Shown: piece by piece, positions 34,421 through 52,533 of the stretch
Position numbering within the stretch: the first letter of the stretch is position 1
Layout of the letters: every line of letters starts with the position of its first letter
Assembly: GCA_937124965.1 (NCBI GenBank)
Contig: CAKZLB010000013.1
Span: forward strand, 299,154 to 363,153
Reading direction: 5' to 3'
DNA: 64,000 bases
Origin: an uncultured Bacteroidota bacterium
Lineage (GTDB): Bacteria > Bacteroidota > Bacteroidia > NS11-12g > UBA9320
The notes under the pieces: model-generated
Databases searched by the model: none
What the model was told of the DNA's origin: nothing
Seen by the model: the letters and a program-made list of their open reading frames with translations, nothing else
Program-made: the position numbers and the translations under genes

Positions 34421-34460
34421 CCAAAGTGTATCTTCAGTCACTCCATGTCTACTGACAGAC

Positions 34461-34493
34461 AAGCCTAACGTCGCTTCCTCTGAAAGACGTTCC
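34461..34493. repeat. Member of a degenerate dispersed intergenic repeat family (copy D)
   Basis: aagcctaacgtcg…cgcttcctctgaaagacgttcc. Compare cgctctgaatgacgtttcc at 50098 and cgctttgaatgacgtcgc at 52326. Lies immediately 3' of the giant helicase gene. Confidence 0.3.
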
Positions 34494-34548
34494 TAGGAAA
34501 TTTCGCGACACCTCTATTCACTATACGCTTTTCACTATTCACTCTTAG

Positions 34549-37500
34549 TTATTCACTCTTAAAAACGTAGCCTTTTTTAACTTTTTTACCAATCATTTTC
34601 TCTTTTTCTTCCAATGCCTTTTCATTCGTAGCAAACGGTTTTTCAGAGACCTGAGGTTTGTTTCCAATGCGTCCATAACGCACAATCACTGAAGATTCAG
34701 CAACTCCGATTTCCCAATATTTGTTACTCGTTCCTTCAACAAACTCATACCGTTCGAATGGAATATCGCCAGTTACCTCGTTCGACGGTTTACTCTCCAC
34801 TTCATCCAACGATGGTTCCGTTATTACTTCTTCTGTTTCTTCAACTTTTTCATCTTCAACAACGTAGATTTTTGTTTCCGCTTCATGAACTTCTTCATCA
34901 ACATCTTCGCCTGCCTCAAACAAATCATCGACATTGACAGCTTTCTCAAACACCGTTTTATTTTCGAGGATTTTCTTAAGTTTTTCAAGAACACGTTCCT
35001 TTTGTTCAAACCAATCTTTGTAAAGCACACGTGTTATCTTCCAACCAAAAGATTTTAAGATTTCTGGTCGCTGGCAATATTGTTCCAACACGTCATCGTT
35101 TGAATAATGATGTGCATGATCAATCAAAATCCCCAACTGGTATCGATCTTCACCATCTACCTTAATCGCTAAATCACACTTAAAATGGGATTGTCCTACT
35201 CCTACATCAGCGGCGTAACCCATTTTATCAAGCTCTTTTTTCAACTGCTGAACAATCAACTTGTTGTCTAAACTTTCAAGTTCTTCGGTCTGACTCATTG
35301 AGTCAAGAATCACATTTGCTTCTCCAATTCGCCCTTCAGATATTAGTCGAGCGTAACTTAAAAAGCGCTTGAAGTAGTTTGCTCCTTCGTTATAGTCGTT
35401 TTTGATATCTTGTGGTTGGATACTCGAAACAACTACCATGTTTCGTTTCGCTCTTGAGAAAATTACATTCAATCGTTTCTCTCCTCCCCTCCTATTTATT
35501 GGTCCAAAATTCATGTACATTTTTCCTGAATGATTGTAACCATAACAAACGCTCATGATAATGATATCACGCTCATCACCCTGCACATTTTCTAAATTCT
35601 TTACAAAAAGACCATTAAACTGGTCTTCATCCATTCGCTGGTATTCTTGTTCCAATCGTGCTTCAAAATCACGATCATCTGTACACAAACGTTGTAAAGC
35701 AGCCTCAATTTCAGACTGTTGTTCCATAGAAAATGCGACCACACCAATGCTTCTTCCATCCTTATGATTCAGCAGCTGCTGAACCATCTTTGCGATGTAA
35801 TTTGCTTCATCAACGTTTTTACGCTTTTCATAGGTTGCATTTTCCAAGTAATGATAGCTAATGCTTTTTGACAACATCTTATCAATATCAATGTCTTCAG
35901 AAATGTCCGTGACTGGAAGGGATTCTTCACTTTGCGATTGATGCATGACATTATCAGGAATCGTTAAAAGTCCTCGTTTGTAAAACGCAGCATTGCTAAA
36001 ACTAATTAAGCTTTCATGCCTGCTTCTATAATGCCAACCCAGCATCACCGACGATAGTTTTCGTCCACCTTGGTTCAGCAAGCTATCTGCATCAAGGCTT
36101 ATCCCGATATGTTCTTCGGTTTCACTTTCATCTTCATCGACGGTATTGCTTGAGCTAAAGAAATTCGTCGGCGGCATTTGCATTTCATCTCCAACAATGA
36201 TGGTTTGTTTGGTTCTAAAAAGCGATGGAACACCTTCTTCCACAGTAATCTGACTCGCTTCATCATAAATTACCACATCAAATAAATCAACGTCAATTGG
36301 CATGGTGTCACTCACACTGAGTGGACTCATCAGCCAAACCGGTTTTAAAGCAGTTAGCAATGAATTTGTTTCTTCACCCGCCAATTCACGAATCGACTTA
36401 TAGCGCATCGATTTACCGAATTCATTTTCTAATATTCGTCGAGCCGCAAGCCATAACTTCTTCTGTACTTTTTCCTCTTGCGTTAATTGAGCGGCGACAG
36501 ATTCGGTAACGCGAATCATGTCGGAAAACTCATCTCGAATTTTCGCCCGAATGTGTTCAACGTTACTCTCGTAATATTTGTCAAGCAATGCATTTATTCT
36601 TCGAATACTTATTTCCAAACTGTCGTCTTCGACCCTTGCAAAATTTGCTTGAGTTTCATAAATATCTTTGAGCGATTTATAAGCAAAATTGAATTCAAAG
36701 TCAGCCAAGTCCCAAGGCATTTGATACAAACAATGCTTTAGCTCTGGACTTACATTTTTTGCTTTTTCGATAAATGGCATCATTGCCGATAACGAACTAA
36801 CAACTGGTTTACTTTTTTGCAATTTCTCGTCTAAATTTTCAACTTTTAAATTTCGCACATCACCATAAAGCTGTTCGACATTTTCATATAGCTCTTGAAA
36901 CATGGCAGCTTGGCCATTCAACGCATTGATCTCTTCTAATGCATTCTCTCTAACCCAATGACCAAGTGTTTTTGTTGGATGCAATTGCATCTCTTCAATC
37001 CATTTCGTCTCATCATCCCAGGCCTCCAATCCGAAACTTGACATCGTTTGAGTTCTAAGTCGCTCAATCTGATCTTTACAAGTGTACTCATCATTCAGGT
37101 TTGTGAGCAGTTTTTCAAAATCTGGTTTAATCTTGTGCGCTTCAAGATTGTACGATTCTGCAATTTGTCCTTTTAGTTTATAAAAGGCGGGATTTACAAA
37201 ACGTAAAATGGAGCTATTCAGTTTCTTCCATTGAATAAGGGCTTGCTCAGCGTCGTCTTTGCCCCACTTCTGTTTCCAGTTACTGTTCGATTTTTCGAGA
37301 CTGGCTTTTTCTTGCAACAAAGACTGTATTGATTTTTTAGCTTCGTATAAATCAGCCGCCTCATTCGAACCTCTTGAAAACACTTGGAGTTTTCCCTTAT
37401 TGACTATCGTTCCTAAGCGCTCTGCTAATTGAAACCTTTCCTTCCAAAGACTCAATTTCATCTTTTCAGGATCATCAATATCGAAATCATCTAACTGTTC

Positions 37501-40029
37501 TAGCCAATTATCTAATATCGTTACAGACTTTTCAATTTTGTCTAAAACGACTTGTTTTGGATTTGACGATTCAATGATTGAAGTTTCGAGCTGAGCAAAT
37601 GGGTACTGCGAAATTGCTTTTTCTAATCCTGCAGTTTTCAATTGTTCAATCCAGTCAGTTATCCACTCTCGCTCCGATTTCCATTCCGAATATAAAGCAA
37701 ATTGAACGATAGCCGTTTCAGACGGATAGACACGATGTGCATTGAATCTATGCAATACTTCGAATAGCTCAATTGGCGGCACTTCGCCAGATTTCATTTG
37801 TTTATGAAAAAATGCCAATTTCTCTGTTTCCGCTTCGATTGCATCTACTACAAACTTCCTGTTTCTTTCTATTTCATTTAGGTCTAGTGTATTCGAAATG
37901 AAGCTTTCATACGTTTCTTTGAGGTTCAGGATGAATGATTTTTTATCCGCCTGAGAATCGTGTATCAAACAGCACAATTCGTCTAGTTTCCGATTTTTCA
38001 ATCTATGGAATACAACGTCCAATGCAGCACGTTTTTCACAAACAAACAAAATCTTTTTGCCTCGTGAAATGTAGTCTGCAATTAGATTTGTAATTGTCTG
38101 TGACTTACCTGTACCAGGAGGTCCCTGAATGATATAACTTTGTCCAGTTCTCGCTAACTCTATTGCTTTTGTTTGGGTTGGATCCGCAGAAATAATTGGA
38201 AAATTTGTCGCTAAATCTGAGTTGCTTTCTGTATCGTTTAGAACACGCTGTGGCAACTCACTAAATAGTTGGTCGAATATTTCATCAGACGTTTTAGAAT
38301 CAATTATCTCATTGTAATCACGCACCAAGCTCATCTTACGATAGTTAAAATTACCAATTGTGATGTTGCATGTATCTACTTCCCAAACCAATGGATTTAC
38401 GTCGCCTTCATTGTCTGTGGTATAAAACGTTCTAGCCTTTTCTTGAACCGCATTATTTGTTGGACTTAAACTGTCATTGATAATGTATTCTAGCGCACTG
38501 TTTTTGTAGCGAATTCGCTCTTTAAAAATTTGTAACCCTAACGGAATGAAATCGTCGTTTGAATAGGAATAATGGAAATTACGTACGTTTAGCGCAGCTG
38601 CTTTTTTGGTTAATTTGTGTGTTCGTAGATTAAAGTTCTTTTTAGCTATGGTATGTATTAGTTTAATCTTTGGCTTTTGACGCCATTCTATAGAAATTCC
38701 AGAACCATCTGATGCAATTTGTTGCTGAATAGTATTCACCAAATCCTCAACATCACTTGTTTCCAAGTCAATAAAACTTGGCAAATCGATATCATACAAA
38801 TCCTTGAGATAATTACTTAAAATCGGATTTATCTCAGCTTCCGTGCTATCAAATCCAATAATAAATTGATCTCGAACTCCTTTTTTCTTTGTTACTGTAG
38901 CTGGCAGTAATAAAAGCGGTGACGTAATTTTCTCTGTATTATCTTCCTTAAAATTATACCAATGTAGGAACGCAACAACCACCCGCAATTGACTAAAACC
39001 ATACTCATTCTGACTTCGTCGAGCATCCAACCGAATTTTGTTTAAGGTTGGAGCGATGATTTTATTTTGCCCGATTTCGACGAAGTTATTGACGATGATC
39101 TTTTTGGACTTAATCACCTTTTTTCGGATATTATCGTTCCAAAATATCAAGTCTTTTTCACGAATATTTTCGTGATCTAACAATAGCGGAACGGATGATA
39201 TCGTGAGGTTTAAGAAGTTTTGTTGTTCTCTAAAATATAACAACTTATTCCGTCTACTAATATCAAATAGCCGATTCTTAAGCTTTGCTAGTATCCATTG
39301 ATTACGCGTTGATGTTTCTTGATTTCGAAATCCTTCTGTTTCTGTTAAATCAACATAATTTTCAGGATTATACTCCCGATAGTTGTTCAGTTTGGTAATT
39401 GCCTCTTCCAAATTCGACAAACGATCTTCTCGGTATACCTGCGTCATTTCATAAATGACATTGTGTGCCGTTGGGTGAAGCGATTGATTAAGAAAAAACA
39501 GCCGTTTCCGATTTTCAACAAAAGCCTCCAAGTCATCTTTCTCTCGAAAATCTAATTGATACGCCACACTTGCGAGTATCATCCCGAGGTTAAAAATATC
39601 CGTGATTGGATCGTAATGACCCAAGGCGTACTCCCATGATTTGTAATTTGGAAGGTATGACGCTTGAGACGGCGAAGTATTCTCATCCATGTGAATGAGA
39701 TTGGTTGAGTACTCAGAGCTTTGAGTATCGACATCCAGTTTCTCTGTATACCCTTGATCAACCTCTATACTTGACTTTTGATTCGGCTTTACAAATAATG
39801 GACGCGTTGCATACTGAATAGTTTTAGCAGGACCTGAAACACTCAACCGATTATCGATGTATTCAATTTGTTGAATGTGGGTAATCATTGCAACCTGATT
39901 ATTCTCGTGTAGGTATTTAACCTTTTCAAGAAGCGGAAGCGTATAGGCGATAAAATCAGGTGTTTTAAGCTGACCGAAATCCTTAATTCTATCGATAAGG
40001 TGAAATATGTTTTGTGAGGTATTTTCCAT
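34549..40029 (-). CDS. Giant (1826 aa) multidomain protein: N-terminal kinase-like C-lobe signature region, DUF4011, Upf1-like SF1 helicase core, Vsr/DUF559-like endonuclease fold, acidic linker, C-terminal WGR domain
   Basis: DUF4011-like 'NKLLYFR…YGFSQLRVVVAFLHWYN…SPLLLLPATV'. Walker A 'IIQGPPGTGKSQT' (aa 633-645). Motif II 'DEASQ' (1256-60). Motif III 'VGDEMQMPP'. Motif IV 'GWHYRSRHESL'. Motif V 'VQGDERDIIIMS'. Motif VI 'EKRLNVIFSRAKRNMVVV'. Endonuclease-like 'FKCDLAIKVDGEDRYQLGILIDHAHHYS'. WGR 'YWEIGVAESSVIVRYGRIGNKPQVSEKPF…A…KVKKGY' (aa ~1755-1826; nt 34552-34767). Confidence 0.85.
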   Translation of the reverse strand: MENTSQNIFHLIDRIKDFGQLKTPDFIAYTLPLLEKVKYLHENNQVAMITHIQQIEYIDNRLSVSGPAKTIQYATRPLFVKPNQKSSIEVDQGYTEKLDVDTQSSEYSTNLIHMDENTSPSQASYLPNYKSWEYALGHYDPITDIFNLGMILASVAYQLDFREKDDLEAFVENRKRLFFLNQSLHPTAHNVIYEMTQVYREDRLSNLEEAITKLNNYREYNPENYVDLTETEGFRNQETSTRNQWILAKLKNRLFDISRRNKLLYFREQQNFLNLTISSVPLLLDHENIREKDLIFWNDNIRKKVIKSKKIIVNNFVEIGQNKIIAPTLNKIRLDARRSQNEYGFSQLRVVVAFLHWYNFKEDNTEKITSPLLLLPATVTKKKGVRDQFIIGFDSTEAEINPILSNYLKDLYDIDLPSFIDLETSDVEDLVNTIQQQIASDGSGISIEWRQKPKIKLIHTIAKKNFNLRTHKLTKKAAALNVRNFHYSYSNDDFIPLGLQIFKERIRYKNSALEYIINDSLSPTNNAVQEKARTFYTTDNEGDVNPLVWEVDTCNITIGNFNYRKMSLVRDYNEIIDSKTSDEIFDQLFSELPQRVLNDTESNSDLATNFPIISADPTQTKAIELARTGQSYIIQGPPGTGKSQTITNLIADYISRGKKILFVCEKRAALDVVFHRLKNRKLDELCCLIHDSQADKKSFILNLKETYESFISNTLDLNEIERNRKFVVDAIEAETEKLAFFHKQMKSGEVPPIELFEVLHRFNAHRVYPSETAIVQFALYSEWKSEREWITDWIEQLKTAGLEKAISQYPFAQLETSIIESSNPKQVVLDKIEKSVTILDNWLEQLDDFDIDDPEKMKLSLWKERFQLAERLGTIVNKGKLQVFSRGSNEAADLYEAKKSIQSLLQEKASLEKSNSNWKQKWGKDDAEQALIQWKKLNSSILRFVNPAFYKLKGQIAESYNLEAHKIKPDFEKLLTNLNDEYTCKDQIERLRTQTMSSFGLEAWDDETKWIEEMQLHPTKTLGHWVRENALEEINALNGQAAMFQELYENVEQLYGDVRNLKVENLDEKLQKSKPVVSSLSAMMPFIEKAKNVSPELKHCLYQMPWDLADFEFNFAYKSLKDIYETQANFARVEDDSLEISIRRINALLDKYYESNVEHIRAKIRDEFSDMIRVTESVAAQLTQEEKVQKKLWLAARRILENEFGKSMRYKSIRELAGEETNSLLTALKPVWLMSPLSVSDTMPIDVDLFDVVIYDEASQITVEEGVPSLFRTKQTIIVGDEMQMPPTNFFSSSNTVDEDESETEEHIGISLDADSLLNQGGRKLSSVMLGWHYRSRHESLISFSNAAFYKRGLLTIPDNVMHQSQSEESLPVTDISEDIDIDKMLSKSISYHYLENATYEKRKNVDEANYIAKMVQQLLNHKDGRSIGVVAFSMEQQSEIEAALQRLCTDDRDFEARLEQEYQRMDEDQFNGLFVKNLENVQGDERDIIIMSVCYGYNHSGKMYMNFGPINRRGGEKRLNVIFSRAKRNMVVVSSIQPQDIKNDYNEGANYFKRFLSYARLISEGRIGEANVILDSMSQTEELESLDNKLIVQQLKKELDKMGYAADVGVGQSHFKCDLAIKVDGEDRYQLGILIDHAHHYSNDDVLEQYCQRPEILKSFGWKITRVLYKDWFEQKERVLEKLKKILENKTVFEKAVNVDDLFEAGEDVDEEVHEAETKIYVVEDEKVEETEEVITEPSLDEVESKPSNEVTGDIPFERYEFVEGTSNKYWEIGVAESSVIVRYGRIGNKPQVSEKPFATNEKALEEKEKMIGKKVKKGYVFKSE

Positions 40030-40035
40030 GGTCGA

Positions 40036-41283
40036 TTAATCTTGGAATATGCTGTCTTCTCGTGATTCGTTTTGCTTTTGCAAGTCTGCCATTGCACTAT
40101 CCAGAAGCGCTTTAAAGTCGCGAACGGTTAGTTTCATTTCTTTTCTGATAATTTTTTCATAGATATCCTTAATGCCAATCACCTCCGCTAATTCGGAAGT
40201 ATACGCAAGCGGCATGTTCTCAAGCTCTCTATCAACCTTCGAAAAGTCTAACAGTACGTAACAGAGATAGGACTTGACCGACTCCTTAGAAGACTCAATA
40301 TTTTTGGCAAAGTCTTCAATTTTGACATCGTCTTTTGTTCGTACAAAATCCTGAAAATACTGATCACACAGATTCAACACCGTAGACGTTGCCATCCATT
40401 TTGGCTTGACGATTAATTGGAGGAGGTTTTTCGTTACCTCTTGCATTTCAGTTTGCTTAAAGATGTCAAGCTTGTCAATGTCTAAAGAGCCTTCAATCAA
40501 TTTTTGAACGTGTTCGAAATAATCCTTATCGTTTTCCGATTGCATGAGAAGTGCAATACTTCTGATATATGACTCAGGGTGCGTGTCGTTGACTGTTCCT
40601 TCATCAACATTCGATAGTATTTCCTTTGCTTGGTTTAAATAGCTTTCCGCGTTGACTTCTGACAACCCTGTATCAAGTTTTACCAACATTTGTATTACCG
40701 TTTTATGGTCTTTTGAAACGAGTAAAGATCCAGCATCACAAAAGAGTTCCATGTATAGCTGATAAATTCGAGCAGTTTGGATAATGGCATTTTCACTACG
40801 ATTATCGTTTGCCAATGAAACTACTAATCGATTCGTAATTTCAAACTCTTCGTTGTCTGTTTTGTAAAATAAATAATGACTAAGCTCGTGCGCTAATAGG
40901 CATTTCATTTCCTCATCGTTCAATAGGTTTAAAACAGACCCTGAGAACACAATATGTGCTTCCTTATCAAGAATTGAAATTCCGGCGTTTAACTGTGTAC
41001 TATTATTCTCTTGATAGAGAATTACGTTTGCATCTATCGCCAGCACCTTGCAGCATTCATCAGCCAAGAGGTATAGTTTTTCATGACTTGATCTGTCGAG
41101 TCGGTAGGTATTTTTTAAAAGCGTTTTTTTGTATTCATCTATCTGTTGCTCCTTCGTCGCTTTAAGTGCAAACCAATCCCACGTTTTCTTTTGCTGTTTA
41201 AAATGATCTCGCAATTTTATGTGATACTGAAACGGAGTGAGGTTTAAACTGGGTGAACTCGACTCTGTGGTTTGATTTTCCAT
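40036..41283 (-). CDS. Soluble HExxH zinc-metallopeptidase-like protein (M48-like core) with uncharacterised alpha-helical C-terminal half
   Basis: 'NVILYQENNSTQLNAGISILDKEAHIVFSGSVLNLLNDEEMKCLLAHELSHYLFY' parallels the M48/HtpX 'NAFa.G…i.l..gLl..l...El.aVlaHElgH' block. Downstream Glu in 'ELFCD'. No TM segments. Stop is 6 nt before the helicase ATG. The track starts at TTG 41289; ATG 41283 is preferred. Confidence 0.6.
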   Translation of the reverse strand: MENQTTESSSPSLNLTPFQYHIKLRDHFKQQKKTWDWFALKATKEQQIDEYKKTLLKNTYRLDRSSHEKLYLLADECCKVLAIDANVILYQENNSTQLNAGISILDKEAHIVFSGSVLNLLNDEEMKCLLAHELSHYLFYKTDNEEFEITNRLVVSLANDNRSENAIIQTARIYQLYMELFCDAGSLLVSKDHKTVIQMLVKLDTGLSEVNAESYLNQAKEILSNVDEGTVNDTHPESYIRSIALLMQSENDKDYFEHVQKLIEGSLDIDKLDIFKQTEMQEVTKNLLQLIVKPKWMATSTVLNLCDQYFQDFVRTKDDVKIEDFAKNIESSKESVKSYLCYVLLDFSKVDRELENMPLAYTSELAEVIGIKDIYEKIIRKEMKLTVRDFKALLDSAMADLQKQNESREDSIFQD

Positions 41284-41558
41284 AGACAAAATTAAGGTGC
41301 TAAATTATGGAAAAGTGCGAAGACTGTCAGATATTTAGCGAAGAATGTGGATGTGATTTCACGTTCTAAGCTTAAAAATTAATCACCTTTTCTAAACGGG
41401 CACAACCATGTTATTTAGAAAGAATAATTAATGTGAGTCAGGCTTTATTTATTACCCTCTTTCATTCATAACAAATCACCTGTTTGTGCCCAGGGAAAGG
41501 ACAATGCGTCAAGTTGGAGTTTTTTTTCTAGAAAACATAGTTCTTAAATTAGCTTAAT

Positions 41559-42551: not shown

Positions 42552-42914
42552 AACATCGTTTTATCTATCAACGTAATAAAATTTGTATTCTCTTTAGTCT
42601 TTTGAAATGTCGTGATGAGAGCTGTAACTACAGTGGCTAAGTACATATTCATCTTTGTCCTTATATGAAGCTACATTTCTTATTTAGGAACTAGTTGAAA
42701 AACTTAATGAGTATAAGCTGCAAGAATGACACTATCGAACTTCAAAAAATTCCGAAGAGTTAATACAGTTAATGCTCAATGGCAATGAGTTTTATCCTGA
42801 ATACTTTGAATACAAATACTGTCCCAGTGGGGATTATTATGTTTTAACTATTATACTTCATCACGAAAAAGACAACTTAGTTATTGATAGTCGGGATTTG
42901 AATAAGGAGGAAAG

Positions 42915-43544: not shown

Positions 43545-43565
43545 AATTAGTCGGATGGAGGTTAT

Positions 43566-43823
43566 TCAGTCGTAATGAAATCTACACTTCGCAATTAATA
43601 TTTCGTCCTCATTGTATTGGTAGATTAATCTGTGTTCGCTATCTATTCGTCTTGACCAAAACCCAGCATATTTATGCTTTAAAGGCTCAGGTTTTCCAAT
43701 TCCATCAAATGGGTTTCGACCAATCTCTTTCAGAAGATCATTTATTTTTTTAAGCTTTTTTTTATCCGTTTTTTGCCAATACAAATAATCTTCCCAGGAC
43801 TCGTCAACGAATATATACTTCAT
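43566..43823 (-). CDS. yoeB: YoeB/Txe-family toxin (RelE fold)
   Basis: 'SWEDYLYWQ…D.K…KIN.LLKEI.R.PF.G.GKPEPLK…G.WSRRID.EHRLIY' colinear with YoeB. Confidence 0.85.
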   Translation of the reverse strand: MKYIFVDESWEDYLYWQKTDKKKLKKINDLLKEIGRNPFDGIGKPEPLKHKYAGFWSRRIDSEHRLIYQYNEDEILIAKCRFHYD

Positions 43824-43830
43824 CTTAACT

Positions 43831-44079
43831 TTAAATTAAGTCTTTGTCAAAAGACTCACCGCTTTTAAGTTTGTCAATAGCGGAATCTAATCTTAATTCA
43901 TTTTTTCGAGAAGATAATTCGTGATTTGTAGCCATCAATGAATTGTATTCTTGCAATGACATAACTACAATTCCAGAATCTTTTCCGCGATTTATTATCA
44001 ACGTTTCAACGTTTTTTACAACTAGGTCTAAGTAAGCTTTAATATCTTTCCTAAAAGCAGAAACAGTAGTTATTTGCAT
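43831..44079 (-). CDS. yefM: YefM/Phd-family antitoxin
   Basis: 'MQITTVSAFRKDIKAYLDLV…ETLIINRGKDSGIVVMSLQEYNSLM' Phd/YefM fold. Immediately upstream of yoeB. Start taken at the internal ATG (44079), not the track's 44115. Confidence 0.8.
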   Translation of the reverse strand: MQITTVSAFRKDIKAYLDLVVKNVETLIINRGKDSGIVVMSLQEYNSLMATNHELSSRKNELRLDSAIDKLKSGESFDKDLI

Positions 44080-44447
44080 AATTTTGTATTTTATTAAGTA
44101 CAAATATAAGTACAAAATTTAGATTACTTGATTTCTTCTGTGTAGCTGACAACGACTCAATAGCGTCCTAAACTTTTTTTTAGTAATGCTAGTGACGCCA
44201 GTTAATTCAGGTGAGTAGGATTTTTGAAGGACTTTGGGGTTTAATGTTCATAATACATTTGGTTTGGAGGTCGATGGCATTTTTGGAGATGGAGTGTCAG
44301 TGAAGTTTTTTTTGGTAAAATCCAAGGGAAGTCGAGAACTTGTTCGAGAATCACTCGCAGGATTCCAATAAAAACAAACGGAAACGAACAACGCCAAAGG
44401 AGCCTTGAACTTTTTGTTTACTTTTTGGTTCAAGACAAAAAGTAAAA

Positions 44448-44514
44448 CCTGCTTGCCAACAAGCAGGTCGGTTTGGCCTGCCTGCAGCAGGCAGGCTGAT
44501 AAGCCTGCCTGGCG
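44448..44514. repeat. GC-rich twin palindromes plus repeat-family motif (copy A) in an AT-rich divergent intergenic region
   Basis: CCTGCTTG-CCAA-CAAGCAGG (44448-44467). GCCTGCCTGC-A-GCAGGCAGGC (44476-44496). AAGCCTGCCTGGCG (44501-44514), which recurs at 50148-50161. Confidence 0.5.
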
Positions 44515-44604
44515 GAAGACACGGCCAAGTAGAACTATTTATTAAAATATTTACGACAGGATTGCTACCAAACAATTAGAATCTCACAACTACGTTAAGA
44601 ACGT

Positions 44605-45903
44605 ATGCCAATAAACAGACTTAAATCCCTTTTAACCATTTTCTGTTTAATACTAGTTTGTCAAATTAGTTATGCATGCAGCATGTACAAAGTCACGCAC
44701 AACGGCAGTACGATGGTTGGTTGTAACGAAGACAACTGGCGCACTACTTCTCATATTTGGTTTGAAAATCCGTTAACTACAGGTGCGTTTGGTGCAGCAT
44801 TCACTGGATCTCGTAACGTTGGAGCCAATCGATATGCTCCCCAATCGGGCATGAATACAGAAGGCTTAGTTTTTTCACGGTTAGAGTCATGGTATCCAAA
44901 AAAATCTGTTGATTTATCAAACAAAAAACAAATTACTGATGAAGTGATTTTCCTCTCAGAAATTCTTCATGACTACAAAACGGTAGCTGAAGTAAAACGA
45001 CACATTGAGCAATACGACCATAGTATTTTTATAGATGATGTCTTTATCTATATCGACAAATCTGGTGACTATCTAGTTGTTGAACCTTATGGATTTGTTG
45101 AAGGAGATGAGGCGGCCTATGTACTGTCTAACTTTTGTCCATCCATAACAAATAAGGAAACGGCTAGAACATTAATTCGCTATAAGAATGGTGAGGATTA
45201 CATCAAAAATCACTCAGTAGAAGCCTCGTTAACATTCTGTAAAAACGTCTCAGACACCATGCATGTTTGTAGAAACAGGAATGGGGATGGAACGTTGCTA
45301 ACGTCTATTTGGGACACGGACAATGGAACCGTTAACCTATACTTCTATCATGATTTTGACTCAACAATTCAATTTAGTCTATCAACAGAACTCGCTAAAG
45401 GCGACTATCAATTGTATATCCCTGACCTATTTCCAAAGAATTCTGAGTACCAACGTTTGGCAGATTACAAAACACCTTTCAACACCCCGTGGTTGCGAGT
45501 TTCACTAGTTGTGCTGGCGGGAATATTATTTCTCAGCATTGTTGTATTTGGTTTTGACTACCTCAGGAAGCTAAAAACCGAAACGCTTAACGTAAAAAAA
45601 ATCCTGCTGATTGGTCTTAACCTCCTACTCGTTGCGTATCTCTTCGTTTTAGCAACGAACATAAACATATACTATTTTGATGCCCCTTATACGCACTATA
45701 GTTCAAATCTGATTACAGCATCCTCCTACGTACCTTTTATACTCTTATTGGCAATCATTCCGCTTTTTATGTATATGGCTAGAAGGTTGACTCAAAAAAG
45801 CACAGCACTATTAGAGAAAGGTTTAATTGGGGCGAATATGGTTGTATATCTTGTTCTGGTAGTAGGCTTTAATTACTGGGGTTTGTTTACTTTTATAAAT
45901 TAG
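44605..45903 (+). CDS. Ntn-hydrolase (choloylglycine hydrolase/linear amide C-N hydrolase)-like domain fused to a C-terminal polytopic membrane domain
   Basis: After the signal peptide, 'CSMYKVTHNGSTMVGCNEDNW' fits the N-terminal nucleophile pattern C[ST]x…G.N.D of the choloylglycine hydrolase family. ≥4 TM helices in the last 150 aa. Confidence 0.4.
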   Translation: MPINRLKSLLTIFCLILVCQISYACSMYKVTHNGSTMVGCNEDNWRTTSHIWFENPLTTGAFGAAFTGSRNVGANRYAPQSGMNTEGLVFSRLESWYPKKSVDLSNKKQITDEVIFLSEILHDYKTVAEVKRHIEQYDHSIFIDDVFIYIDKSGDYLVVEPYGFVEGDEAAYVLSNFCPSITNKETARTLIRYKNGEDYIKNHSVEASLTFCKNVSDTMHVCRNRNGDGTLLTSIWDTDNGTVNLYFYHDFDSTIQFSLSTELAKGDYQLYIPDLFPKNSEYQRLADYKTPFNTPWLRVSLVVLAGILFLSIVVFGFDYLRKLKTETLNVKKILLIGLNLLLVAYLFVLATNINIYYFDAPYTHYSSNLITASSYVPFILLLAIIPLFMYMARRLTQKSTALLEKGLIGANMVVYLVLVVGFNYWGLFTFIN

Positions 45904-45986
45904 CAAGGCCAAACATCCGTTGTTCAAATAGCTTAATGTTAAACTCTTAAAACCCCTATATTCGAAAAACAGTTAACAAGAACACT

Positions 45987-46340
45987 ATGAATAAAACTAT
46001 TCATTTATCGTGCGCAATTGTCGGAGTAATGATAAGCTTTGCTTTCGCAAATCCAAACACCGCCTTAAAGGCTACTTATGGCGTTTCTCTGAACGACCCT
46101 TCGCAAATAAAACTTCAATTAAACAACGACTTTTCGTTCACCTATCAAGACTATTCCAATGTCGACAAACCAATTGATGTTGAGGGGACATATAAAATTG
46201 ATGGCAAACTTATTATGCTCAATTCTACTTCCAATTCATCCTATCACAACAAATGGAAAATTACAAACGACGGGTGTCGGATTCAATCACGAAAAGGAAT
46301 ATTGTTCTATTCACTTGTCAAATTAAGTAACGAACATTGA
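45987..46340 (+). CDS. Hypothetical secreted protein
   Basis: Signal peptide. No domain recognised. Confidence 0.4.
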   Translation: MNKTIHLSCAIVGVMISFAFANPNTALKATYGVSLNDPSQIKLQLNNDFSFTYQDYSNVDKPIDVEGTYKIDGKLIMLNSTSNSSYHNKWKITNDGCRIQSRKGILFYSLVKLSNEH

Positions 46341-46915
46341 GGGCTACTCTTATTTCTATAGTCATTCTAGCAACCTTAGCTAATTGTACCACTTCTAGAT
46401 TTTCCAAAACTCCATTTACTTATATCGCTAAAGCTGAAAAGCTTTATGAAAAAGGAAAGTATGATAAAGCATTAAGCAAGTTAGAACATGCAGACACTAT
46501 GCACTATTTTATTTGCGGACTTTATCAAGGTTTACGAAATCAGGAAATTGCTCTGTTGCAATATTCAGTTTACATGAAACTCGAAAAATATGATTTAGCG
46601 CGACAATCGTTAGACTCACTCTGGAGGTTGGAAACACAAGTTTTCGATTCGTTGAAAGTTCTTGCCTATCAAAAAGAATATGGCGATTTGTTCTTATCAC
46701 AAAAAATTGATTCAGCAATAAAAAATGCAACTATCGACAGTAGCATGAATAACACGGAATTCATCTCGTATGTGAATTTAACAGTTGATAGTTCCGTTGT
46801 ACTAAGATTCAAAGCAGAAAAGGATATGTTTCGTTCCAAAGATGAATTTGGTCGTAATCTGTGGAAGACAAGTTTTATGAACTCCTCTGCGTATCAATTA
46901 CTCAAATACCCTTAA
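46337..46915 (+). CDS. Hypothetical protein (possible lipoprotein)
   Basis: N-terminal hydrophobic segment plus 'LANCTT'. 4-nt overlap with the upstream gene. Confidence 0.4.
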   Translation: MRATLISIVILATLANCTTSRFSKTPFTYIAKAEKLYEKGKYDKALSKLEHADTMHYFICGLYQGLRNQEIALLQYSVYMKLEKYDLARQSLDSLWRLETQVFDSLKVLAYQKEYGDLFLSQKIDSAIKNATIDSSMNNTEFISYVNLTVDSSVVLRFKAEKDMFRSKDEFGRNLWKTSFMNSSAYQLLKYP

Positions 46916-47111
46916 TTAAGTATAAATTCATACTGTACTTCATGTTTCACAACTAAAGTCTTAGCATTCTTCTAGTTAAAACTTCACTTAAATATCAAAA
47001 TAATAATCTATTGGCGAGGGCTTTCAATTAACCATTAAAATTTGAAAGTGAAATAACTTAACAACTTATTAAAATTCTTAATTAATGTAACGGCACTTAT
47101 TACAACCTGAA

Positions 47112-47639
47112 TTATTCCCAAATAAGTGTTAAGCTCAATGCACCCATGAGGCTACTGTTCGGGCTTTCAAAATCAGCGTTTATAATTTCCAAAACAGATT
47201 TACCATCCTTAGTATAGAATCTCGCTGATTCACAATTACTATCACCAGGTCCTTTTTGAGGTCTAATAGTAAATTCATCGCCTTCTGAAGTAAATCCTTT
47301 ACCCGTTATTACAATCGTTCCAGCGCTTCTTTTATCATGAACGGTGTAGTCTCCATCCTCTGTGTTAGCCACTTCAATTGACAATTCGGTATTGGGATAG
47401 TTATCTAACTCCATGCGCAAAACCATTTTCGTATCATATGGCCCCGACACCTGCTTTACGGTATGAGTTGATTCGTAAAACGTGACATCTACATCGCCAT
47501 CGTTGAATTTAACAAATTGAAAGGTTGGTGTATTTGTATCAACCATATCGTCTTTTGTAGATGGGGCATCATCATTACAACTAATTAATCCGATAGATAC
47601 TACTGAGACAAAAAAGAGACAAAGGCTAAATGATTTCAT
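47112..47639 (-). CDS. Hypothetical lipoprotein
   Basis: Signal peptide plus lipobox 'GLISCNDD' when started at the internal ATG 47639. The track start at 47750 adds 37 unlikely residues. Confidence 0.45.
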   Translation of the reverse strand: MKSFSLCLFFVSVVSIGLISCNDDAPSTKDDMVDTNTPTFQFVKFNDGDVDVTFYESTHTVKQVSGPYDTKMVLRMELDNYPNTELSIEVANTEDGDYTVHDKRSAGTIVITGKGFTSEGDEFTIRPQKGPGDSNCESARFYTKDGKSVLEIINADFESPNSSLMGALSLTLIWE

Positions 47640-47769
47640 AGAATTTATTTTTTGTTGGACTCGAAAATACTTAAAATTTCGTTTAATTTCAGCTTTTACG
47701 CATATGTAACAGAAGCTAAGAATAGGGCCCCAACTAAACTTGATGCTCAAAAAAACGCAACGTCAAATG

Positions 47770-49146
47770 TTATCTCATTAAAAGTTTCCCGTTTAACATT
47801 TCACCATTTTCAAGAATCACCGTCCAAATAAAAACACCTTCTTTCGCAGGAATATTAAGTGACGAGTTTCCATTGACTGTTTGCTCAGAGATTATTTTTC
47901 CAACCAAATCCGATAGAACAAACCTCCCGGTGCCTCCATTTGATATTCTAACGTTTAAGGATTCTCCAATTTGAATAGGGTTTGGTCCAATGTTAATTAT
48001 GCTAGATAGATAATCTCGAACCGAAGCATTATAATCTTCATTGCTTAATTCAATAATTTTGTGTGTAAATGGATTGTTATTACTCCAAGCGTTACCACTT
48101 GTAGCCAAGTATATTTTTCCGTCAGGAGAAACACAAATATCACGAAGACGGGTCAGTTCATTTTTAAAATATTTAGTTTCCGAAACAACAGAATCTCCTG
48201 CTTCATTAAAGCCAAAAGCAATTACACTTTTATCTTTTAAAACCGTCATTAACAGCTTGTTTCGAAACTCTGGGATTGCACGATGACCGTACCAAATAAT
48301 ATCGGAAGGTGCAATCGTTGGAGTCCAAGCCGCCAGTGGCTCGACTACATTGTTCTCGTCACAAAACGCTTCTTCTGGTGGTGAATCACAAAAACCCGCA
48401 ACGGTAGGCCATCCATAGTTTCTATCTTTTTTTATGATGTTTAATTCATCGTCCGTTGTGGGTCCATGTTCGGAACTATACAGAATTCCATTTGGAGCCA
48501 ACCATAAACCTTGGGCATTTCTGTGTCCGTAAGACCATACATAACTATTTGAACTCGGATTGTCACTTGGAATTGTACCATCTAAATTCATCCGAAGCAC
48601 TTTGCCAGATAACGAGTTCATGTCCTGTGGAAGATTTTGCTTTTGTGCATCACCAGTGGTCATAAGCAACGTATTGTCTGGAAGGATTAATAACCTACAC
48701 CCAATATGGGTTGTATTTCCAACGATGTTTTCAACTAACGTATCTATTGGAATTAACGTTTTACCATCATAGTCAAACTTCACCAATCGCTCCAAAATAC
48801 TACTCCCTGCTAAATACGTGTAGGCTATAAAAACATGGGGCGTGTTTTCAAAATCTGGATGTAAAACCATACCTAACATACCAGCTTCCGATCTTTCATA
48901 AACATCTGCAGACAAATCAAGTAGAACGTCATGTTCTCCAGTTTCTGGATTTAATCGACTAACTCTACCAAACCGTTCGGTCATCCAAATATGGTCGTCT
49001 GGCCCCCAAAGAATTTCCCATGGAATATCCAACGAATCTTTGACCACCCTAGATGTAAGCACAGTTGAATCTAACGTGTACTTTTCTTGTCCATACAAAA
49101 AACCACTGCTACAGATTAATAGTAAAAGGAGTAATCGTTGTTTCAT
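47770..49146 (-). CDS. PQQ-dependent sugar (glucose/sorbosone) dehydrogenase-family beta-propeller with probable T9SS C-terminal sorting domain
   Basis: 'DIPWEILWGPDDHIWMTERFGRVSRLNPETG…AGMLGMVLHPDF' GSDH pattern. C-terminal ~80 aa beta-rich tail typical of Por-secreted proteins. Signal peptide from ATG 49146 (the track start is GTG 49173). Confidence 0.55.
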   Translation of the reverse strand: MKQRLLLLLLICSSGFLYGQEKYTLDSTVLTSRVVKDSLDIPWEILWGPDDHIWMTERFGRVSRLNPETGEHDVLLDLSADVYERSEAGMLGMVLHPDFENTPHVFIAYTYLAGSSILERLVKFDYDGKTLIPIDTLVENIVGNTTHIGCRLLILPDNTLLMTTGDAQKQNLPQDMNSLSGKVLRMNLDGTIPSDNPSSNSYVWSYGHRNAQGLWLAPNGILYSSEHGPTTDDELNIIKKDRNYGWPTVAGFCDSPPEEAFCDENNVVEPLAAWTPTIAPSDIIWYGHRAIPEFRNKLLMTVLKDKSVIAFGFNEAGDSVVSETKYFKNELTRLRDICVSPDGKIYLATSGNAWSNNNPFTHKIIELSNEDYNASVRDYLSSIINIGPNPIQIGESLNVRISNGGTGRFVLSDLVGKIISEQTVNGNSSLNIPAKEGVFIWTVILENGEMLNGKLLMR

Positions 49147-49229
49147 AAGATTTCTGTTTTTTGTGAATAACACGAAACTATCGAATTGGTGTTAACTTGT
49201 TGCCCATAACTTTCACTAACCTCAGACCA

Positions 49230-49934
49230 ATGAAATGTTTTACAATACTATTACTTCTACTTACATCATTTTTCGCAAGAAGTCAAGAAATTCTCATGAT
49301 GTATACTCAATCTATTGATATAACTGGTGGTGCTAGTCTGACAAAATTTCATGATTTCGCAAATAAACACTGGCGACAAAATGGATATTCAAACTATAAG
49401 ACTAGACCTGGATATGTCATTCGCATTGGTCTAGACTTACCGTATCACGGAAAAATAAATCCGAGATTTGACTTGACCCTTGAAAACTATGGCGGCTACA
49501 TCAACGTTGACGAATCTAGTCCGGCAGGAAGTTTTGGAACAAAAGGAGATGTCCGAAAAACGAACCTTACTTTAGGTCTAACCGCGATTCACTACGCCAA
49601 TTTTTGGAAAAACTTAAAAGTCGTTAGTGGCCCAACTATTTCTGGTTTGGTTTCTGAAAAAGCCAGCGGTTCATTCGATTACTTGAACACATCTCATGAC
49701 CTAGACAAAGATTACAACCCATTTAACTCAAAAGTACTTTTAGGATATCGTATAGGAATTGTTAAGGCGTTTGGGTTAACGGAGAAATATGGAATCAGCC
49801 TTCAGTATATGTGGAGCCTCACTTTAACCAAAGAATTTCGGGAGTATCCCAGCACTACGCGTGCCGGCAGACATGCGGTGACTGTTGGTTTATATAAAAA
49901 TAGAAAGAAAAAGAATGTTGCATATAAAATATGA
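49230..49934 (+). CDS. Hypothetical outer-membrane beta-barrel-like protein
   Basis: Signal peptide 'MKCFTILLLLLTSFFARSQE'. Alternating beta pattern. Aromatic C-terminal residue pattern. Confidence 0.45.
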   Translation: MKCFTILLLLLTSFFARSQEILMMYTQSIDITGGASLTKFHDFANKHWRQNGYSNYKTRPGYVIRIGLDLPYHGKINPRFDLTLENYGGYINVDESSPAGSFGTKGDVRKTNLTLGLTAIHYANFWKNLKVVSGPTISGLVSEKASGSFDYLNTSHDLDKDYNPFNSKVLLGYRIGIVKAFGLTEKYGISLQYMWSLTLTKEFREYPSTTRAGRHAVTVGLYKNRKKKNVAYKI

Positions 49935-50050
49935 ATGTAACCTATTTTCACATTAATGATTTAGCATAAAAAAATGAACAACTACTAATGAATAGCTAAT
50001 TTTGTATAAATTGGTTGCACTCCCTCAATGTGATTGTGCTACCATCATAA

Positions 50051-50161
50051 GATTCTTCGCTCAATCATATTCAATCGATAGATTCCAAATTTCGTTTCGC
50101 TCTGAATGACGTTTCCATAGGATAAACCAGAAAAGGACCTTTCTAAGAAGCCTGCCTGGCG
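50051..50161. repeat. Dispersed intergenic repeat family (copy B)
   Basis: gattcttcgct (50051-61), cgctctgaatgacgtttcc (50098-116), aagcctgcctggcg (50148-161). All three are shared with copy C and/or A. Confidence 0.4.
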
Positions 50162-50398
50162 TCCATAGCCGTTAACTTAACAAGTCAAGTGTTTGGTAAT
50201 GTGCGTCAGACAGGGAGGCACTACTGAAGAATCTACTACATTCGAAAAACGTTGTCAATTACCAACTATTCATTGTTCATTGTCCGTTATTCACTAATAA
50301 GTGTTCACCAATTTTCAATTTCCAACTATCAACTCTTCACAATTCGTTATTCATTAACTTTGACCACACCTTCTAACCATGAAACATCGAATAACATT

Positions 50399-50995
50399 AT
50401 GAATCCAATCTTATTCAGCATTTTAACTTTTGTTCTACTTGCTCAAAATACATATACATTTGGACAACGTAGTGATTCCTTAGAATTAGATCTACATACA
50501 GATCATGACACGTTTTTTATCATAAAAGAAAATGTACCTCAAAGCAAATTGTGGGGTAACTGTTGGCACTTTGCAGCTTCATATAACCGATGTTTAGGCA
50601 ATGAATTTGACGTAAATATGGGTCGAACCTATGGCTCATATTTTTGTTCTGGAGGAGGCTGTATGTACAAAACCTATAGCTGGGGTTTGGGTTATGCGTT
50701 AAACTCTTTTGAATCGGAATATCACCATCTAGCAAAGGTCTATTACGAACATACATTCTTTTACTTCCCACCAATATCCTACGGACTTCGAATGGAGTAC
50801 TTTTACGACTTTAATCAAAATAGCAGCTATATCAGGCCTGCAATTGGCTTGTCTTTCATTTATCTTGATATCCTATATAACTATTCATTACCACTAAACA
50901 CGGATGATAACATGTACAATCACGGAGTTACGCTTCGAATAAAACTGTTTCAAAAACTATCAAATTGGCAATACAATCACCCGAACAAATGCTAA
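50399..50995 (+). CDS. Hypothetical secreted protein
   Basis: Signal peptide begins at internal ATG 50399 (MNPILFSILTFVLLAQ). The track start 50252 would translate the repeat-rich leader. Confidence 0.45.
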   Translation: MNPILFSILTFVLLAQNTYTFGQRSDSLELDLHTDHDTFFIIKENVPQSKLWGNCWHFAASYNRCLGNEFDVNMGRTYGSYFCSGGGCMYKTYSWGLGYALNSFESEYHHLAKVYYEHTFFYFPPISYGLRMEYFYDFNQNSSYIRPAIGLSFIYLDILYNYSLPLNTDDNMYNHGVTLRIKLFQKLSNWQYNHPNKC

Positions 50996-51064
50996 TTAAC
51001 CACAGGTTACCAATAATCAGTTCATTAACGCCAATCTCAATATCTTTGTTGAAGTTCTTCACAC

Positions 51065-51844
51065 ATGAACAAACCCGAAATAAGAACAATAAATGTCGTT
51101 CAGTATCTCAGTCCATTGAGAGAAGGTGGTTCGTTGCCTGCAATTGTAAAGGCTGACGATGACTTCCTGTATGTCTTAAAGTTTCGTGGAGCTGGACAAG
51201 GCAAGAAAGCACTAATTGCAGAATTGATCGGTGGGGAAATTGCACGGGTCTTGGGATTAAATGTTCCTGAACTGGTTTTCATGAACTTGGATGACTCATT
51301 TAGTAAAACTGAACCCGATGAAGAAATTCAGGATTTATTGCGATTTAGCGTTGGGTTAAATTTAGGATTGCATTTTTTATCACGTGCTATAACCTATGAT
51401 CCGTTGGTATCTATTGCCGATTCAAAATCGGCTTCTCTTGTTGTCTTGCTGGATAGCATGATTTCAAACATCGATCGAACCGCAAAAAACACAAACCTAT
51501 TAAACTGGAATCACGAGTTGTGGCTGATTGACCATGGGGCAAGCCTTTATTTTCATCATGATTGGGACAATTGGGAATCACATTTAAACAGAACATTTCC
51601 TAAAATAAAAGACCATGTTTTGCTGGCTAAAGCCAGTCATCTGAACGAAGCAGCAGAAGACATTAAACATTTGTTGAGCGATGAAGTAATTGAAAATATC
51701 GTTTCAATAATTCCAGAAGATTGGTTAATCGAAGAGTCAAACCCCATTAGTCCAAACGAAATACGTTCTGCGTACAAGGCATTTTTAATTTCAAAAGTCT
51801 CCAATATTGACGTATTGGCAAAAGAAGCTGCCGATGCAAAATAA
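51065..51844 (+). CDS. HipA-like C-terminal kinase-fold domain protein
   Basis: 'DDFLYVLKFRGAGQGKKALIAE', 'ISNIDRTAKNTNLL…LWLIDHGASLYF' resembles the HipA catalytic / Mg-binding loops. No HipA N-terminal domain. Confidence 0.45.
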   Translation: MNKPEIRTINVVQYLSPLREGGSLPAIVKADDDFLYVLKFRGAGQGKKALIAELIGGEIARVLGLNVPELVFMNLDDSFSKTEPDEEIQDLLRFSVGLNLGLHFLSRAITYDPLVSIADSKSASLVVLLDSMISNIDRTAKNTNLLNWNHELWLIDHGASLYFHHDWDNWESHLNRTFPKIKDHVLLAKASHLNEAAEDIKHLLSDEVIENIVSIIPEDWLIEESNPISPNEIRSAYKAFLISKVSNIDVLAKEAADAK

Positions 51845-52217
51845 AGTCACCTATGAATTTGCAGTAATACGTGTGGTTCCTAAAGTAGAGCGCGAGGAAT
51901 TCATGAATGTTGGGGTACTATTATTTTCTAAACCAAAGAAGTACCTTGGAATGAAATACGCTGTTAACGAAAACCGTCTCAAGGCGTTTGCTCCTGATAT
52001 AGAAATCGATGACATCATCAATTACTTGAACGCGTGGGAATCAGTTTGTGATGGAAGTCCGAACGGTGGAACCATAGGCACTTTCGACATTGCTTCACGC
52101 TTTCGTTGGTTGGCTGCTTCAAGAAGTACTATCATCCAAAGTTCAAAAACGCATCCAGGTCTGTGTTCCAACCCAGAGAAAGTATTGGAAGAGTTGTTTG
52201 AGTTGTATGTTTTGTGA
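51834..52217 (+). CDS. DUF3037 domain protein
   Basis: 'VTYEFAVIRVVPKVEREEFMNVGVLLF' matches the DUF3037 N-terminal signature. ATG 51834 overlaps the upstream stop by 11 nt. Confidence 0.45.
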   Translation: MQNKVTYEFAVIRVVPKVEREEFMNVGVLLFSKPKKYLGMKYAVNENRLKAFAPDIEIDDIINYLNAWESVCDGSPNGGTIGTFDIASRFRWLAASRSTIIQSSKTHPGLCSNPEKVLEELFELYVL

Positions 52218-52278
52218 TGGAGGAGTGGTGAAATAGGGCAATGCTACAAGGAGGCAATAGCTGGAACACAATTCATGG

Positions 52279-52426
52279 GATTCTTCGCTTACGTATTTCA
52301 ACTCCTTTTTATAATCCTTCATAACGCTTTGAATGACGTCGCTGGCCAGCAATAAAATCAATGACGTTACTACTCGTTGAGGACGAAACTCCAATCAATG
52401 TCGTCACTCACAAGCCTGCATGTCGG
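52279..52426. repeat. Dispersed intergenic repeat family (copy C)
   Basis: gattcttcgct (52279-89), cgctttgaatgacgtcgc (52326-43), aagcctgcatgtcgg (52412-26). Confidence 0.4.
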
Positions 52427-52533
52427 TCGTATGTACTTGTACATCAACAGACATAATCGCTAGACGGGCAGACGACTAAAGAGGCTCAACATTCCATTTA
52501 AGAACAATTCCGTTTTTTTAGTAAGTTGCGATT

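Follow-up and report, generated by a model that had tools for sequence, protein, structure and literature searches.

Two groups of small, tagged palindromic repeats are the closest described relatives of the intergenic elements analysed here, which lie in a 64,000-nucleotide stretch of DNA (the window) from an uncultured Bacteroidota bacterium (GenBank assembly GCA_937124965.1, contig CAKZLB010000013.1, positions 299,154 to 363,153). The first group is known from Neisseria, where the NTS repeat (CGTCATTCCCGCGMAVGCGGGAATCYRG), a subset of dRS3, and its relatives, the Ssn-related motifs (SRMs), flank the gene of SsnA (PMC11893778; Chenal et al. 2025, Nat Commun 16:2388). SsnA is a 94-residue, single-domain GIY-YIG nuclease of the cd10448 type, which binds the repeat only as single-stranded DNA (ssDNA), cuts it a few nucleotides upstream and does not bind RNA (PMC11893778). 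This enzyme depends critically on the palindrome, on the three bases GTC that precede it and on the C that follows it; the loop tolerates replacement, deletion and extension. Cutting by SsnA reduces the recombination of incoming DNA at genes that have the repeats at their sides. NTS repeats cluster around particular Neisseria genes, in a "repeat-genes-repeat" layout (PMC11893778). The second group is the super-family of CGTC-tagged repetitive extragenic palindromes (REPs), which includes Neisseria dRS3 and the Rickettsia elements RPE-4 and RPE-6 (PMC3733652; Di Nocera et al. 2013, BMC Genomics 14:522). Their head is CGTC or TGTC, the first pairs of the stem are A-T and the tail is CCA; most occur as head-to-head dimers downstream of open reading frames (ORFs). 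CGTC-tagged REPs have been reported without a dedicated transposase, and REPs in general have been proposed to be RNA hairpins (PMC3733652).

An earlier note on the window had described four copies (A to D) of one degenerate repeat family in GC-richer intergenic DNA, bracketing a patch of accessory genes. Our analysis indicates that B, C and, in decayed form, D are very probably REP-type palindromic repeats of the CGTC-tagged or NTS/SRM class, and that A is not. Although real, the finding is an ordinary one: a known class of repeat is represented by two related copies, partly intact, and by one decayed copy, and region A holds an unrelated hairpin cluster. The four intergenic regions are indeed GC-richer, with GC fractions of 0.37-0.44 compared with typically 0.23-0.34 for most others. 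Their positions are also as described: D adjoins the 3' end of a large helicase gene, A lies beyond a YoeB/YefM toxin-antitoxin module, and B and C flank a HipA_2/DUF3037 gene pair. All of the short strings quoted for them were found, although cgctYtgaatgacgt of C begins at 52325 and not at 52326.

The evidence that carries this assignment comes from other genomes. A composite of the B and C core blocks, GATTCTTCGCT-N(20-50)-CGCTNTGAATGAC, was scanned over both strands of 185,579 species genomes (596 Gb), in which about 0.5 matches are expected by chance, as calculated from the 23 fixed bases and 31 spacings. It matched at least 119 stretches in about 78 assemblies (counted by accession prefix, among the matches listed). 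The matching phyla include Bacteroidota, Melainabacteria, Acidobacteriota, Bacillota, Chloroflexota, Patescibacteria, delta-proteobacteria and Acidimicrobiia, among others. Because their core blocks recur together in so many unrelated stretches, B and C are real relatives.

Reading of the matches gave the grammar of the unit, which on its sense strand is (C/T)GTC-ATTCNGA-X-GAAGAAT-C. Most commonly, X is the 7-mer GCGNAGC (the alpha unit, with a GCGAAGC mini-hairpin), the alternative being AGGAG...ACGACT (the beta unit). X may also be a longer insert at exactly the same point, often with a hairpin of its own, as in Roseivirga (ATCCCGAT-gca-ATCGGGAT). Such fixed-point inserts suggest that loops are extended in a modular way or that insertion is nested. 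As inverted pairs, the alpha and beta units alternate and can fill spacers with arrays of more than 1 kb, as in loci L101 and L090 (the latter from Flavobacteriaceae). In these terms gattcttcgct and cgctYtgaatgacgt are the tail and the head, respectively, of a single alpha unit read on the opposite strand, with an insert of 35-36 nucleotides between them. In the matching loci (L001-L119), hairpin inserts of 20-50 nucleotides were seen at one fixed position, after the GCG of GCGAAGC. Small hairpins nested at a fixed point of a host repeat are also a feature of the short tandemly repeated repetitive (STRR) sequences and small dispersed repeats of cyanobacteria, the sequences of which differ. Heptanucleotide arrays, another point of likeness to cyanobacterial STRR heptamers, are present beside the D and B units and beside alpha units in metagenome-assembled genomes of Chitinophagaceae, with words like CCATTGT, ACCTGAA and TTGACAA (L029, L082, L084, L085, L094 and L102). 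Hammerhead, hairpin and other ribozyme cores, compared with the units by eye, do not fit, in agreement with Rfam. No literature match was found to the DNA strings or to the spurious peptide strings that they encode (RFAQNDK, for example); we infer that the units give rise to many of the spurious short ORFs annotated in metagenomes.

The features of the window copies and their surroundings are collected in the table. Copy B is a head-to-head doublet, in which an alpha unit on the minus strand and a beta unit on the plus strand have their heads facing. The alpha tail is gattcttcgct (50051-50061) and the alpha head is cgctctgaatgacgt (50098-50112). The doublet is enclosed by an outer 9-bp inverted repeat (AGATTCTTC at 50050-50058 and GAAGAATCT at 50226-50234), and in the predicted fold AAGCCTGCCTGGCG from the spacer pairs with the beta loop. 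Copy C has the same layout, but is more decayed and does not contain an intact outer repeat. In D, two adjacent weak matches to the family models are present on one strand, with a combined score reached in 1 of 3000 composition-matched shuffles of that spacer (P=0.0003), and the heptamer array near it resembles the one near B; judged by these resemblances, D is a probable decayed relative of the B/C family. All three copies are located 3' of a gene. The stem begins with AT...AT, and a CCA tail is present in C. A CGTC head is retained in B alpha, B beta, C alpha and D alpha, while the palindrome halves are mutated in B beta, C beta and both D units. In B alpha and C alpha, (C)GTC directly precedes the palindrome and C directly follows it, as in NTS and SRM.

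Table. Features of the repeat copies, region A and neighbouring genes in the window (positions in nucleotides of the window unless given in kb).
Feature	Position	Strand	Remarks
Copy D, region	34.43-34.49 kb		
D beta-type unit, GTCTGTCAGTAGACATGGAGTGACTGAAGATAC	34428-34460	-	decayed
D alpha-type unit, CGTCTTTCAGAGGAAGCGA	34471-34489	-	decayed and truncated; CGTC tag; 16/19 against canonical; contains cgcttcctctgaaagacgt
Heptamer word array beside D (TATTCAC-like)	34512-34562		overlaps the helicase gene stop codon
DUF4011/AAA_11/AAA_12/MTES_1575/WGR helicase, 1826 residues	34549-40029	-	domain annotation
YoeB/YefM toxin-antitoxin pair	43566-44115	-	annotation
Region A	44.4-44.53 kb		beyond the YoeB/YefM module; not a member of the family
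H1 motif CCTTGAACTTTTTGTTTACTTTTTGGTTCAAGACAAAAAGTAA, left part of region A	44403-44445	+	separate dispersed motif family
Terminator-like hairpin (10 bp) with T-run, region A	44446-44469	-	
Long GC-rich imperfect hairpin, region A	44475-44529		AAGCCTGCCTGGCG (44501-44514) is one arm
Copy B, region	50.0-50.25 kb		
Remnant of a further beta unit in B, gttgcactccctc	50014-50036	-	exact match to a Melainabacteria beta-unit loop
B alpha unit	50051-50111	-	core intact; CGTC-ATTCAGAGCG-(36-nt loop insert)-AGCGAA-GAAT-C
Shorter alternative unit in B, CGTCATTCAGAGCGAAACGAAATTTGGAATC	50081-50111		
B spacer between the two heads, 92 nt	50112-50203		holds AAGCCTGCCTGGCG at 50148-50161
B beta partner, CGTCAGACAGGGAGGCACTACTGAAGAATC	50204-50233	+	5' palindrome half mutated, ATTC to AGAC
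Heptamer word array beside B (TATTCAT/TGTTCAT/TATTCAC...)	50262-50310		intergenic, before the called gene start at 50399
HipA_2 and DUF3037 genes	51065-52217	+	annotation
Copy C, region	52.28-52.49 kb		
C alpha unit	52279-52338	-	core intact; CGTC-ATTCAAAGCG-(35-nt loop insert)-AGCGAA-GAAT-C-CCA
AAGCCTGCATGTCG in the C spacer	52412-52425		
C beta partner, GCTAGACGGGCAGACGACTAAAGAGGCTC	52459-52487	+	heavily decayed
VanW gene	52537-53364		

Models built from units of other genomes were run against the window, in which only B and C are significant. The alpha model matches B alpha with E=3.5e-4 and 0.035, and the beta model matches B beta with E=0.0055; beta units were absent from the search pattern, so the latter match is independent. 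When B and C are aligned, the core is identical at 25 of 26 positions, compared with 55 of 153 (36%) for the rest of the element of about 200 nucleotides and 15 of 36 for the loop insert. This distribution argues against the alpha units being simple relics and is as expected if the contact positions are kept and the loop is free to change. Since the determinants known for Ssn have been kept while the surroundings have diverged to saturation, the comparison suggests present or recent constraint, or gene conversion, on the B and C alpha cores. The beta partners and D, in clear decay, are relics.

The window units are like NTS (CGTCATTCCCGCG..GCGGGAATCYRG) in their tag, in the ATTC/GAAT ends of the palindrome and in the trailing C. 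Like NTS and SRM, the units are extragenic and clustered, have a variable and extendable loop, occur around particular genes and, in other genomes, flank GIY-YIG genes of about 100 codons. Canonical NTS-type units are present beside alpha units in two loci, a Roizmanbacteria and an Ignavibacteria locus (L007 and L096). However, where NTS has a GC-rich stem of 8 bp, our units have an AT-rich one of 4 bp, followed by AGA/GAA and the GCGAAGC mini-hairpin or an insert of 20-50 nucleotides, and there are two unit types, alternating as inverted pairs. With the CGTC-tagged REPs they share the unpaired CGTC or TGTC head, the A-T first stem pairs, a short tail (CCA in C), the head-to-head dimer (B) and the position after genes, in spacers that are unidirectional or convergent. 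They differ from these in their shorter stems (instead of 8-9 bp), in loops of 7 to about 50 nucleotides (instead of 4-5) and in their hosts, which are Bacteroidota and many other phyla, where the described CGTC-tagged REPs are mostly from alpha-proteobacteria. A near-canonical NTS-type unit (GTCATTCTCGCGCAAGTGGGAATC) was seen in a Flammeovirgaceae locus (L129, 11567-11590), 4.4 kb from a HipA_2/DUF3037 pair; Cytophagia-like Bacteroidota thus have SRM forms with a GC stem as well.

The family of the associated protein was identified when the 150 ORFs closest to units were scanned against Pfam, which pointed to GIY-YIG, the top family with 8 of the 150 (among the matches listed). All eight GIY-YIG ORFs are about 100 residues long and are separated from the adjoining units, in most cases one on either side, by between a few and some tens of bases; their hosts include Flavobacteriaceae, Pedobacter, a delta-proteobacterium and candidate division FCPU426, among others. 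When one of these unit-flanked proteins was used as a tblastn query, a single ORF of 94 residues was retrieved from a chromosome-sized N. gonorrhoeae record. It begins MQPAVYILASQRNGTLYIGV..., carries Y6, Y17 and E64 and sits among nine exact NTS copies in 2.2 kb. Its length, these three residues, which were mutated in the published study (PMC11893778), and the surrounding NTS repeats identify it as SsnA. Aligned over their full length, the unit-flanked proteins share 37-45% identity with Neisseria SsnA (E 1e-16 to 1e-21). The SRM-ssn-SRM arrangement is thus present for this class of unit in eight loci of other genomes, with Y6, Y17 and E64 conserved. Searches of NCBIfam and of PDB sequences did not add a name for these GIY-YIG proteins.

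The family membership of the units and the association of their class with Ssn homologues in other genomes are observed; how the copies would act in this organism is modelled on Neisseria. By that analogy, the binder would be a small, single-domain GIY-YIG Ssn nuclease encoded elsewhere in the genome, and a unit would be bound when its DNA becomes single-stranded, during replication, repair or the uptake of foreign DNA. If the protein has the needs of the Neisseria enzyme, it would require the palindrome, the upstream GTC and the downstream C, and would tolerate changes and extensions of the loop. Cutting of the ssDNA a few nucleotides upstream would then reduce recombination of incoming DNA at repeat-flanked genes. 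An ssn gene with its own flanking repeats would be a selfish or domesticated element, the sites of which would have spread intergenically, mostly to the 3' ends of genes. Recognition of the B and C cores by an Ssn protein, and any effect on the genes that they flank, would follow the same scheme.

Several observations weigh against this assignment. The published SRM pattern, HGTCWYN(0-2)YYVSBRHN(0-5)WNVSBRGN(0-2)RNCYNB, has no matches in the window and matches 0 of 81 alpha and 0 of 21 beta units; it was built as a search aid from 29 genomes and is not a definition (PMC11893778). The two NTS-type units next to alpha units in L007 and L096 are picked up by it. The canonical alpha unit is predicted to fold as ssDNA with -0.3 kcal/mol, compared with -8.9 kcal/mol for NTS, and the alpha units of the window, with -3.6 and -4.8 kcal/mol, do not fold better than shuffled sequences. 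Pairing within a unit is limited to the 4-bp ATTC/GAAT stem and a GC closing pair; SRMs are described as inverted repeats of 20-50 nucleotides that form a hairpin in ssDNA. The loci had been fished with B and C strings, which makes the matches of the alpha model to the alpha halves of B and C circular in part. The local copy number is low, with no unit in the other spacers of the window or in the 10 kb on either side. Over the 83 kb of window and flanks, out of a contig of 552,702 bp (ENA ERZ928060, k127_249302), there is no ssn gene or pseudogene. Units and Ssn are linked through their association in other genomes, a link that would apply here by analogy. The recognized structure may need pairing between alpha and beta arms, or the protein, and the window copies are best filed as an AT-rich, long-loop variant of the CGTC-REP/SRM kind that the published SRM pattern does not match.

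Mobilization by a transposase is a quite unlikely alternative. In it, the copies are REPINs (REP doublets forming hairpins) or miniature inverted-repeat transposable elements (MITEs), moved by a REP-associated tyrosine transposase (RAYT), IS200-like, or by a DDE transposase, the association with GIY-YIG genes being incidental. The small palindromic units, the inverted doublets that can be folded as one long hairpin or "clover", the clusters, the nested inserts and the intergenic location do recall REPINs and bacterial interspersed mosaic elements (PMC3116915; Bertels & Rainey 2011), as does a lone gene for a small nuclease with its own repeats on either side. The tag is CGTC, however, and not the GTAG of RAYT-linked REPs, and for CGTC-tagged REPs no dedicated transposase has been reported (PMC3733652). 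The nuclease is of the GIY-YIG type instead of an IS200-like tyrosine transposase, and transposition intermediates of the units are not known. Among the 150 neighbouring ORFs GIY-YIG came first, and the 25 families listed for them contain no transposase family. A query with the canonical palindrome gave one weak match in plasmids and one in phages, so that the units are rare in both. The 9-bp terminal inverted repeat of B would suit a MITE, yet its flanks (...catcata / actacat...) do not contain a target-site duplication. The "REP/MITE-like" description of the earlier note names the right kind of element for B, C and probably D, which are of the REP type.

Equally improbable is a role in RNA, as 3' stabilizers, terminators or structured non-coding RNAs in the transcripts of upstream genes. 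Each of B, C and D is found directly 3' of a plus-strand gene, the proposal of RNA hairpins has been made for REPs in general (PMC3733652), and in the fetched loci units are enriched about 1.7-2-fold per kb in convergent spacers. In the same loci, 91% of the units are outside crude ORFs and their orientation relative to the flanking genes is unbiased (29 to 35); taken together with the convergent enrichment, this is more in keeping with a DNA-level element than with a strand-specific RNA. The whole elements do not fold better than shuffled sequences (z of -1.2 and -0.6), and none of B, C and D carries a terminator-like site. At gathering score Rfam has no match in the window or in eight unit-rich loci, and at permissive thresholds (E up to 10) it returns nothing relevant for either. 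Finally, RNA is not bound by SsnA (PMC11893778).

The earlier note had also offered the copies as recombination scars marking insertion boundaries, with direct repeats delimiting a 10-kb D...A block and a HipA-like B...C block, each horizontally acquired. This is very unlikely. It is favoured by the genes between or next to the copies, which by type are defence or accessory genes: in PADLOC the helicase has matches to the candidate defence protein PDC-S37 (E=3.6e-202) and to Hhe, YoeB/YefM forms a toxin-antitoxin pair, and HipA_2 and DUF3037 correspond to PDC-M66A/B, a PADLOC candidate system. Three genes lie between the alpha units of B and C, which have direct orientation, and the clustering of Neisseria NTS repeats around particular genes (PMC11893778) is comparable. 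However, A is not the same element as D, so that the D...A bracket joins unlike things, and the claim of one family with four bracketing copies is not supported. The annotated part of the window (28.5-59 kb) contains no integrase or transposase, a search of the window found no tRNA, target-site duplications are absent, and the GC content of the window (37%) shows no break along its length. Between B and C only the recognition cores are conserved, and a core identity of 25 of 26 beside 36% elsewhere is not the neutral decay of a duplicated boundary. HipA_2 is 75-81% identical across Bacteroidota families, with a constant length of 259 residues, and in three other Bacteroidota loci DUF3037 always follows it and no such unit flanks the pair. 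DUF3037 is the sole neighbour kept among the HipA_2 relatives, and the closest available VanW relatives (at most 80% identical) have no shared neighbours and no synteny. The insertion-boundary reading has no support; a recombination-modulating role around the flanked genes is conceivable by analogy with Neisseria.

Statistics drawn from the window alone (exact k-mers, self-BLAST and colinear chains) are too weak to decide the matter. There are 32 direct shared 14-mers window-wide, one 14-mer common to different intergenic regions has P of about 0.37 under shuffling, and single shared 11-14-mers in the window are not beyond chance. The self-BLAST that the note had proposed, run with a sensitive word size of 7, does not pick out the copies. 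The colinear blocks of B and C reach a chain score of 29 nucleotides, second of 306 spacer comparisons and only marginally above other pairs, a score reached by 2 of 2000 shuffles; B and C are also reciprocal best non-self nhmmer matches over about 190-210 nucleotides (E of about 0.06). Within the window, only B and C are demonstrably related by their sequences. That there is no repeat family at all, only chance matches in AT-rich intergenic DNA, fits these numbers, the A-B link and possibly parts of D, but it is extremely improbable as a whole and refuted for B and C by the recurrence of their core blocks at the same spacing class in other genomes. The reciprocal match of B and C and the independent beta-model matches in B and D also speak against it.

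Region A does not match B, C, D or the family models. As a family member it was rejected, the 14-mer AAGCCTGCCTGGCG being its sole link and compatible with chance (P of about 0.37); a link between A and the family through the CCTGCCTG module was likewise rejected, as the loci show no more than about 2-fold enrichment of this module and it seldom lies close to units. The region is a hairpin cluster in the divergent spacer between yefM-yoeB and the gene at 44605. Its minus strand (44400-44545) folds at -61.1 kcal/mol (z=-5.95), and 44469-44446 is the best terminator-like site in the scanned 34.3-52.7 kb, although no minus-strand gene ends there. The cluster may be a small RNA or an insulator.

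The left part of region A is formed by the H1 motif, of about 45 nucleotides, (G)CCTTGANCTTTTTG(T)TTACTTTTTGGNTCAAG(C/A)CAAAAAGTAA, which was also seen in loci L131-L168 and at L104:116-155. An exact 28-nucleotide core of this motif is present in 38 JGI metagenome stretches with 26 distinct contexts, on low-GC contigs, and one assembly (UOEP01) has at least eight copies at the ends of its contigs. Although absent from the search pattern, the upstream half is conserved, and it pairs with GNTCAAG. One pair covaries (CG 10, UA 9, AU 3), with 12 double changes against 3.6 in shuffled alignments (0 of 500), and a CG/UG pair is present in addition. In most cases a variable GC-rich hairpin comes after H1, and an ORF of the same orientation lies upstream of it (21 on the same strand, 5 on the opposite one). 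It has no Rfam match.

The gene content of the window includes a dcw cluster and CHU_C and TonB-type proteins and, like the best protein matches, indicates an uncultured Bacteroidota host. A 417-residue protein adjoining the helicase is SprT-like. The conservation of HipA_2 is unusually high for a defence gene, with 75-81% identity and an unchanging length of 259 residues in a comparison that took in Spirosomataceae, Flammeovirgaceae, Saprospiraceae and Flavobacteriaceae. In each of the four loci read, that of the window and those of three relatives, the 3' end of HipA_2 and the DUF3037 gene share about 10 nucleotides. Elsewhere, a tandem array of the 8-mer CATTGTAG (4.9 repeats, 30196-30234) is located between ftsZ and the peptidyl-tRNA hydrolase gene. 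The spacer at 61341-61961 (621 nucleotides) has a GC-rich core at about 61560-61670 (gcgaagcgcgggcggcc...ggaggagggattgagcg); it contains no ORF of 80 residues or more, no Rfam match and no match to the repeat unit.

For the window itself, assignment of B, C and D to CGTC-tagged, NTS/SRM-type repeats explains why some of its spacers are GC-richer and share strings, and removes the idea of insertion boundaries; otherwise it matters little. A further-reaching possibility, which we put forward only tentatively, is that the alpha and beta units represent a distinct, cross-phylum specificity class of Ssn sites, with a weak 4-bp palindrome, a mini-hairpin or long loops and obligate inverted pairs. 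Ssn/SRM systems would then be much more widespread than described, especially in Bacteroidota, and the cores flanking HipA_2/DUF3037 would be live Ssn targets that limit recombination of incoming ssDNA. Because the AT-rich, long-loop form adjoins Ssn homologues in many phyla and yet escapes the published pattern, surveys of Ssn/SRM systems, and of their possible role in limiting recombination near defence or surface genes, may under-count them in Bacteroidota and elsewhere.

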